This document shows positions 2,398 to 3,155 of a stretch of 20,196 nucleotides of DNA, piece by piece. The stretch's first letter is position 1. Each line of letters starts with the position of its first letter. The translations under genes were made by a program, and so were the position numbers. The stretch is taken from positions 1 through 20,196 of the IMG/VR virus record IMGVR_UViG_2563366948_000002. One strand, written 5' to 3'. Below the pieces are notes generated by a model that was not told where the DNA came from, did not search any database, and worked only from the letters and a program-made list of their open reading frames with translations. The DNA is from a virus (lineage: Duplodnaviria > Heunggongvirae > Uroviricota > Caudoviricetes).

Positions 2398-2688
2398 ATG
2401 TTTGATTACCAAGTTTCCAAACATCCACATTTTGATGAAGCCTGTCGTGCATTTGCACTGCGCCACAATCTGGTGCAACTGGCAGAACGTGCAGGCATGA
2501 ATGTGCAGATTCTGCGGAACAAGCTGAACCCAGCTCAGCCTCATCTATTAACCGCACCAGAAATCTGGCTGCTTACCGATCTGACTGAAGATTCAACGCT
2601 GGTAACCGGACTGCAACTGGATGAAGAAAGAAAACAAGTGATGAAAATTATGCAGAAGGTGTGGGAGGACGACAGCTGGCTGCATTAA
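2398..2688 (+). CDS. cII: CII-like regulator, apparently C-terminally truncated or divergent
   Basis: N-terminus [24 protein letters not shown]...[17 protein letters not shown] matches recalled 186 CII; only about 96 aa versus about 169 aa recalled for 186 CII. ATG at 2398 with GAGG SD; the ORF track starts at an upstream TTG (2392). Confidence 0.7.
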
Positions 2689-3094
2689 GAAACATTGCCC
2701 CCAGGAGGATTCATTCTGATGGGGGCTAGTTTGGGTAGCGAGTGAAACGAGGCGTAAGGTGGGCGGCCATTTTGATAAGTGATTGTACGATTTGTGTTGT
2801 GAGTTCAACGGGTCGATGCAACGCTATCCTTAATCAAGGGGACGTTGCTCATACCCATCGATGCAATGAAAATCCATACTCATGGGGAAGACCAGAATGT
2901 CCCTGCCTTTTTCATTTTGTTCAGCACATGCACTATGGCCATTTCCTTCCCAAGCTAGCTATCGTAATCACTCAGCGTCAGTAAACTACTGAAAAATTGT
3001 TTTACCTTGTATATCAATAATGCCAAATCATACCCAAAAAATCGAAAATAATTAGATCGACAGGCAGAAGGCAATGTGAATAATCTTAAAAACC

Positions 3095-3125
3095 TTGACT
3101 GCCAGTGAGGTTTGGTTCTATAAAT
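3095..3125 (+). promoter_or_regulatory. Candidate sigma70 promoter upstream of darT
   Basis: TTGACT (3095-3100), then TATAAA (3120-3125) after a 19-bp spacer; AGGA SD at 3144-3147 before ATG 3156. Confidence 0.3.
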
Positions 3126-3155
3126 AGACTTACGAATTTGAAAGGATGAGTTGAA

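Follow-up and report, generated by a model that had tools for sequence, protein, structure and literature searches.

In intact relatives of the prophage analyzed here, cII encodes a protein of 169 aa and is followed by fil, B, dam and A. In the window (the whole stretch of DNA studied, 20,196 nucleotides, positions 1 to 20,196 of IMG/VR record IMGVR_UViG_2563366948_000002), an ORF with a CII-like N-terminus ends after 96 aa and is followed by a gap and then directly by the cargo gene darT. This raises the question of what became of the remainder of cII and of the replication genes. The original prediction had envisaged a short CII of about 96 aa, about 470 bp of non-coding DNA ahead of darT, the absence of B, A and fil between lysogeny switch and cargo, and a deletion or recombination junction somewhere in 2600-3100. 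As detailed below, positions 2398-3155 very probably represent the scar of an intramolecular deletion in a P2/186-like prophage at the rcdA-ybjL site.

The remnant and its intact counterpart

The window is a piece of E. coli chromosome carrying a P2/186-like (Peduoviridae) prophage between rcdA and ybjL; its left end adjoins rcdA, as seen in loci with identical sequence, and the host gene ybjL lies at its right end. It comprises, in this order, int, a small ORF, cI, apl, the ORF at 2398-2688, a 467-bp gap, darT and darG, three uncharacterized genes, portal and terminase genes on the minus strand, further late genes, ogr and ybjL. According to the ORFs and the colinearity with the prophage of E. 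coli S40, the P2 order of integrase, CI, Apl/Cox, portal, terminase, tube, tape measure, U, D and Ogr is kept. The element is a decayed remnant, about 17 kb in size, of a P2/186-like prophage.

The window begins at the stop codon of the phage integrase gene (1-1053, minus strand; assigned from the ORF and its translation), the counterpart of the 350-aa integrase of the S40 prophage, with the Pfam family Phage_integrase assigned on identical loci. The 186-type CI immunity repressor (1449-2024, minus strand) is intact (Pfam Phage_CI_repr, E=2.8e-33; Phage_CI_C, E=5.4e-29). Between int and cI, an ORF of 63 aa with a hydrophobic N-terminus (1242-1433, minus strand) is kept in relatives, and for an identical gene in another locus (L005) a precomputed match to Pfam YdcA (PF27300) is available. 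A consensus scan yielded a promoter-like site upstream of apl (TTGACG-17-TATGTT; 2043-2071, plus strand), which, judging by the gene order, would occupy the position of the early lytic promoter pR. The following gene (2144-2365, plus strand) encodes a 73-aa protein without a Pfam match; it was assigned as an Apl/Cox-like excisionase-repressor from phage relatives annotated as Cox or Cox-like, and the ORF has the same length and position in S40 and EC931.

As a reference we used the P2-like prophage of E. coli S40 (NZ_CP010235.1; locus L004), which is intact, occupies the same site and carries the same cargo (darTG, an IS fragment and three hypothetical genes), but, unlike the window, retains a 5.1-kb early/replication segment and a 12.4-kb head-lysis-tail segment. 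BLASTN against this prophage resulted in four colinear blocks (window 1-2604, 2603-11117, 11110-17265 and 17328-20196), the first two of which correspond to positions 2006-4609 and 9718-18232 of the reverse complement of L004. Over the three shared prophage blocks, the identity to S40 is 97.8%, 99.3% and 95.1%. The two S40 segments missing from the blocks gave no BLASTN match anywhere in the window, which bears out the predicted absence of B, A and fil.

The early-operon junction and the chimeric ORF

The alignment to the early region of an intact P2-like prophage that the original prediction had called for located the break precisely: similarity to S40 ends at 2604 and resumes, with the block starting at 2603, 5,108 bp further on. 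In a three-way alignment, the deletion junction falls on a TA dinucleotide common to both parents (2603-2604; left parent ...ACGCTGGTA|GATGG, right parent ...GGAACTA|ACCGG, window ...ACGCTGGTAACCGG), and codon 69 of cII is joined in frame to codon 51 of a dinI-like gene. The junction lies at the very start of the predicted interval, but inside the ORF and not in non-coding DNA. A repeat search around it returned nothing relevant. When window 2300-3300 was used as a megablast query against 5,426 complete E. coli genomes, no record covered 80% of it; the matches were split, with query 1-305/309 being 100% identical to full-length cII and query 304-1001 being 100% identical to the arrangement 'DinI-like | DarT'. 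A short CII with replication genes downstream was not found in intact relatives, and a 751-bp query consisting of the end of the apl-like gene, the whole of cII and the start of fil is covered to at least 80% by about 1,190 of the 1,312 complete-genome records with this cII region.

In S40, the 5,108 bp missing at this junction contain the final 100 codons of cII, followed by fil, a DUF5347 gene (B-like, and annotated as gpB in one phage record), DUF2732, a TraR/DksA zinc-finger gene, dam, the replication endonuclease gene A, a 62-aa ORF and codons 1-50 of the dinI-like gene. Both replication genes, A and B, are thus inside the missing segment, and the element is not an intact prophage in this respect. 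The replication origin of P2 and 186 lies inside gene A; if the same holds here, replication should be impossible for the remnant. The 62-aa ORF and the 77-aa dinI-like gene of S40 (about 9313-9803 of the L004 reverse complement) have a perfect LexA box, CTGTAAATATAAACAG, upstream of them and look like a two-gene SOS operon at the position of the 186 tum operon, whereas no exact CTGT-N8-ACAG LexA box, and hence no sign of LexA control of the dinI-like remnant, was found in the window. In 186, the tum operon is LexA-controlled, and this SOS-controlled module carries the Tum antirepressor. By analogy to that operon and to the work on 186 CII (PMC7708051), the remnant has probably lost its SOS-induction module besides replication. 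The last 27 residues encoded by the 96-aa ORF correspond to the C-terminal part of the phage DinI-like protein, as known from DinI and the Tum-type SOS module of 186 (PF06183; E. coli DinI, PDB 1GHH), but because the deletion took codons 1-50 along with the small ORF and the LexA box in front of them, the dinI-like remnant is no longer a separate SOS-controlled gene.

From the junction alignment, the frame check and Pfam, the ORF (2398-2688, plus strand; ATG at 2398, stop codon ending at 2688, 96 aa) is no short CII allele but an in-frame chimera, CII(1-69)::DinI-like(51-77). The DNA of its cII part (2398-2604, plus strand; codons 1-69 including the helix-turn-helix with V36/Q37) is 100% identical to cII of intact prophages up to 2604-2608, and residues 1-69 are identical to the 169-aa CII of an intact relative, which in its full length matches phage 186 CII (PDB 6VLI) with E=2e-65. 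Pfam Phage_CP76 (CII; PF06892) matches residues 10-73 (profile 1-67 of 146, E=6.7e-24), so that the predicted resemblance of the N-terminus to 186 CII is well founded. The dinI-like part (2605-2688, plus strand; codons 51-77 and stop, in frame with cII) is 100% identical at the DNA level in S40 and two other genomes. Pfam DinI (PF06183) matches residues 69-95 (profile 37-63 of 63, E=3.3e-7), and alignment to PDB 1GHH confines this part to the C-terminal 27 residues alone. Of the predicted short CII, the length was correct, but not the identity: 69 residues of CII are left, far from a near-full-length protein, and with codons 1-50 of the dinI-like gene deleted, the DinI domain is incomplete as well.

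Like 186 CII (PF06892; PDB 6VLI, 6VPE, 6VMH), the chimera is encoded after apl in the early operon and has the homologous N-terminal 69 residues with the helix-turn-helix; unlike it, it has 27 foreign residues in place of 70-169. The 186 protein has 169 aa, with a helix-turn-helix that includes V36/Q37, and its first 145 residues retain full specific activity (PMC7708051). Because CII activity is known down to 145 residues and 69 remain here, the chimera is most likely a non-functional by-product. Its composition also explains an annotation oddity, namely that the 96-aa protein is labeled 'DinI-like family protein' at NCBI (several accessions), whereas the original prediction took it for a short CII. 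An independent in-frame fusion, CII(1-110)::DinI(C-terminal 33 aa) with 143 aa (P0001), is found in Cronobacter sakazakii (L008 10001-10432 and L009 3744-4175), in a similarly decayed P2-like prophage and with its junction 2 nt from the break site at cII codon 111 (V111) described below.

Spacer, cargo and the second deletion

The non-coding stretch ahead of darT measures 467 bp (2689-3155), with darT starting at 3156, essentially as predicted, and no credible gene was found in it. Since it matches the corresponding dinI-darT spacer in S40 from end to end with 100% identity, it is cargo-region DNA that was inherited intact, and not scar. The first 109 bp (2689-2797) recur in P2-like prophages whose cargo differs, and in 2902-3015 there is a match of about 74% identity to a transposase fragment of the IS903B/IS5 family. 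A stem-loop that follows the stop codon (about 2697-2726; 7-bp G/C) was not better than shuffled sequences (z=-1.2), a promoter-like site is located upstream of darT at 3057-3084, and Rfam gave no match on 1900-3400. As a terminator scan predicted none in the spacer, early-operon transcripts could in principle now reach darTG.

The genes darT (3156-3737, plus strand; Pfam DarT; PADLOC DarT, E=2.2e-36) and darG (3742-4713, plus strand; Pfam Macro; PADLOC DarG, E=2.8e-80) constitute a DarTG system, in which the DarT ADP-ribosyltransferase adjoins the macrodomain protein DarG, and represent defence/toxin-antitoxin cargo. IS remnants flank the pair, at 2902-3015 upstream and at 4870-4977 downstream, the latter annotated in S40 as an IS5/IS1182 transposase pseudogene; they hint at how the cargo arrived. 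Further downstream, a cos-like sequence, GGCGTGGCGGGGATACGA (5266-5283, plus strand), matches the cos core of P2/186 with 3 mismatches (0.01 expected by chance), scored against what we take to be the P2/186 consensus. It lies between darTG and three co-oriented genes at 5435-7662 (371, 148 and 221 aa), for which there was no significant Pfam match (one weak Rep3_C match was below the curated cut-off) and no PADLOC match. The region from gpA to gpQ near cos is a documented cargo and defence hotspot of P2-like phages (PMC9122126), and by virtue of their location in it the three genes are candidates for uncharacterized defence genes. The cargo thus occupies the P2 gpA-to-gpQ (tin/old) hotspot (Rousset et al. 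2022, PMC9122126) around the cos-like site, with darTG on one side and the three genes on the other; what differs is that the usual left neighbors (gene A and an intact SOS module) are missing, and the cargo is less than 0.5 kb from the immunity switch.

Compared to S40, a second deletion of about 12.4 kb leads from the interior of the scaffold gene O to the interior of the sheath gene FI (junction 11110-11117); with it went the genes for capsid, small terminase subunit, lysis, baseplate and fibre. It leaves a second chimeric ORF of 230 aa (10675-11367, plus strand), gpO(N-terminus)::sheath FI(C-terminus), as seen from the BLAST blocks, the junction alignment and Pfam matches to Phage_GPO and Phage_sheath_1C. 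The complete head, lysis and tail/baseplate modules of an intact prophage are absent, and given the O-to-FI deletion, virion assembly should be impossible. Another indel marks the right prophage boundary: close to the ogr/ybjL end, at 17265-17328, about 62 bp of the window stand opposite about 700 bp of S40, which include a hypothetical gene. What the remnant keeps are int, cI, apl, darTG, other cargo and some late genes; we infer a locked-in ('grounded') prophage that still supplies CI immunity, darTG and the cos-proximal cargo.

Decayed P2-like prophages are common at the rcdA-ybjL site, and the present one is a new case of a known decay by internal deletion. The defective P2-like prophage of E. 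coli B and BL21(DE3) shares with it the site, the int-cI-apl-cII' left end, an internal deletion starting from cII, a second deletion starting from gene O, and cargo beside the portal gene. It differs in that its break at cII codon 111 is rejoined inside gene A (cII'::'A), and in that its cargo is the retron St85 instead of darTG.

Origin of the junction and recurrent breaks in cII

The exact 96-aa protein was found in 50 assembly-index blocks; all 24 contigs read from them represent one locus, and the three loci fetched have the same neighbors and are each 100% identical to the window. The junction is absent from complete E. coli genomes, and its exact 34-mer and 24-mer had no matches in the GTDB representative genomes (one genome per species). 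Apart from an initial ambiguity, this absence is what speaks for an assembly artefact or a natural short CII allele of an intact phage. However, the exact protein and its context recur in independent assemblies, including a 3.1-Mb NCBI scaffold (GCA_000408345.1), ENA metagenomes and Logan runs, both halves of the ORF are 100% identical to two separate genes of intact prophages, and its C-terminal 27 aa belong to DinI and not to CII, so that either possibility is hardly credible. The deletion is a real event fixed in one lineage. Separately, many of the deposited 'partial CII' proteins in the 96-aa cluster (P0249-P0261) end at residues 52-56 together with the contig, and one partial CII that ends at the contig edge is found on 65 contigs, as if short-read assemblies of strains with multiple P2-like prophages broke at a repeat or mosaic boundary within cII.

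In the deletion we favor, an illegitimate, homology-independent joining at the common TA connected cII codon 69 to dinI-like codon 51, about 5.1 kb downstream, and thereby removed the rest of cII, fil, the B-like gene, DUF2732, the TraR/DksA gene, dam, A and the LexA-boxed SOS operon (the small ORF and the 5' half of the dinI-like gene). The join is in frame by chance and leaves the 96-aa chimera in the early operon downstream of apl, with the spacer and darTG being whatever lay downstream of dinI in the parent. The collections contain no single intact prophage with 100% identity to both sides, and the exact parent is therefore unsampled. The best 100% matches for the two sides are in fact found in different genomes, the identity to S40 differs between the left (97.8%) and the right block (99.3%), and E. 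coli often carries more than one P2-like element, at up to 5 places per genome, all of which would fit an illegitimate recombination between two such elements, be they co-resident prophages or a prophage and an infecting phage. Yet P2-like phages are mosaic, and unequal identity to a single reference is hence expected; moreover, the genes on both sides of the junction are ordered and oriented exactly as in a single prophage, and the flanks belong to one integration site, which renders an exchange between two elements improbable. It is also very unlikely that the chimera is a selected product, either as a regulator in which the CII helix-turn-helix is joined to the C-terminal, RecA-interacting helix of DinI or as a dominant-negative CII, even though it is in frame, keeps the helix-turn-helix, is located in the pR operon and has a second, independent counterpart in the 143-aa fusion of the decayed Cronobacter prophage. 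A join is in frame with a chance of 1 in 3 and two such cases arise with about 1 in 9, so that chance could still suffice for the two events; the majority of the other cII fusions are either out of frame or with unrelated genes, the fetched copies, all 100% identical, yield no measurable selection signal, and of the 145 residues with which 186 CII is known to remain active, the chimera has only 69.

The position of the break within cII is shared with other variants. When the chimera was used as the query of a protein search, most of the matches were further aberrant CII proteins. Of the 120 proteins with a CII N-terminus that were read as the best of this search, about 27-29 part from the CII sequence immediately after V69 and 38-41 immediately after V111, compared to fewer than 15 for each of the other comparable stretches of CII. 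The tails come from D, U, E, S, sheath, tape measure, dam, A, LysB and an invertase gene, in or out of frame. At the DNA level, the V69 break (CTGGTA|GATGG) is found in the window at 2603-2604 and at about 8207 in both L012 and L021, and the V111 break (GCGGTA|TCTGG) in BL21(DE3) (L010 9477-9483) and in L015 (about 8332); L020 (about 6129) and the Cronobacter locus L008 (about 10330) are broken at most 5 nt from V111. Successive 126-bp slices of cII matched 1,318, 1,364 (1,317 at full length) and 1,259 complete-genome records, from which it follows that some 58 records lack DNA just past approximately codon 111; we suspect that many of these are from the B lineage. The clustering of cII breakpoints is a robust pattern of variants, not a count of independent events on a phylogeny, and many of the variants are single automatic assemblies.

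The tails were mapped on reference prophages, and the right-hand contexts are those of the references, not of the true parents. In 24 of the 45 mapped cases, TA immediately precedes the junction at the right-hand partner site, and 20 of these 24 sites have G at +4 (background 0.24, p=1.4e-9); with the G at -4/-5 and the C at +2/+3 added, the right-hand sites give a weak palindrome, CGGNTA|NCCG. A weight matrix built from them ranked L51, V69 and V111 as the top three of the 18 TA sites in cII. After this ranking, three variants broken after L51 were found on three cII alleles (P0121, P0137, P0156) in a search of 50%-identity representatives with CII residues 1-51, in which breaks without TA also clustered at N44. 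One right-hand site is joined to both left sites in at least four pairs (P0036/P0040, P0079/P0090, P0006/P0058, P0068/P0085). A search of IMG/VR with the pattern 'left flank + not-G' gave two chance matches only, in unrelated DNA.

These data could be taken to indicate a site-preferring breakage and rejoining, with codons 69 and 111 of cII as preferred sites and partners at TA in a weakly palindromic context. The clustering at V69 and V111 with tails from many P2 genes, its confirmation at the DNA level, the reuse of right-hand sites, the bias for TA and for G at +4, and the L51 breaks that followed upon the matrix ranking all point in this direction. Against it stand the lack of an identified enzyme, other junctions in the same remnants that have no TA on one or both sides, the cluster at N44, the many variants represented by single contigs of automatic assemblies, the derivation of the right-hand contexts from references, and the fact that the 24 TA sites were picked out of 45. 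We consider this explanation unlikely, and it is rather doubtful that the junction in the window is one case of a sequence-preferring deletion in P2/186-like prophages with the weak CGGNTA|NCCG context.

Several specific causes were considered for the break sites and dismissed. Protection from RecBCD by a Chi-like sequence was discarded: at V69, GCTGGTAG agrees with Chi at 7 of 8 positions, yet the scanned range 4000-10000 contains nine more 7/8 sites, seven of them between cII and dinI, and V111 reaches only 6/8. For a type IIS site there is CTGAAG 14 nt upstream of V69, but manual inspection revealed no equivalent at V111; cleavage of a pseudo-origin by gpA was rejected on finding no similar sequence in gene A, and a gyrase-type 4-nt stagger on the product composition at -3 and +1, which does not fit. 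The partner sites share no extended pairwise homology, with 2.6/8 matches to the used site versus 2.6-3.0/8 to the other. The 14-bp candidate att core AACAAAAAACCCAT, common to the left flank and the right end of the window, is unrelated, which speaks against secondary att recombination, and intron-like artefacts of gene models are contradicted by real DNA junctions in finished genomes. The literature search gave nothing usable citing PDB 6VLI (186 CII) or on the nick site of the P2 A protein.

Were the breaks nevertheless sequence-preferring, the left sites would be codons 51, 69 and 111 of cII and the right partners would lie in D, fil/B, lysis genes and the invertase gene; a nuclease, a recombinase or a replication-linked activity would then drive repeated 'grounding' of these prophages, sparing immunity and defence cargo. 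With the intramolecular deletion that we favor, the darTG element would be a dead, locked-in prophage, which is relevant for predicting inducibility or the mobility of its cargo. If the clustering of breakpoints in cII holds, the decay of P2-like prophages would be non-random, and the mechanism of their domestication may become experimentally approachable.
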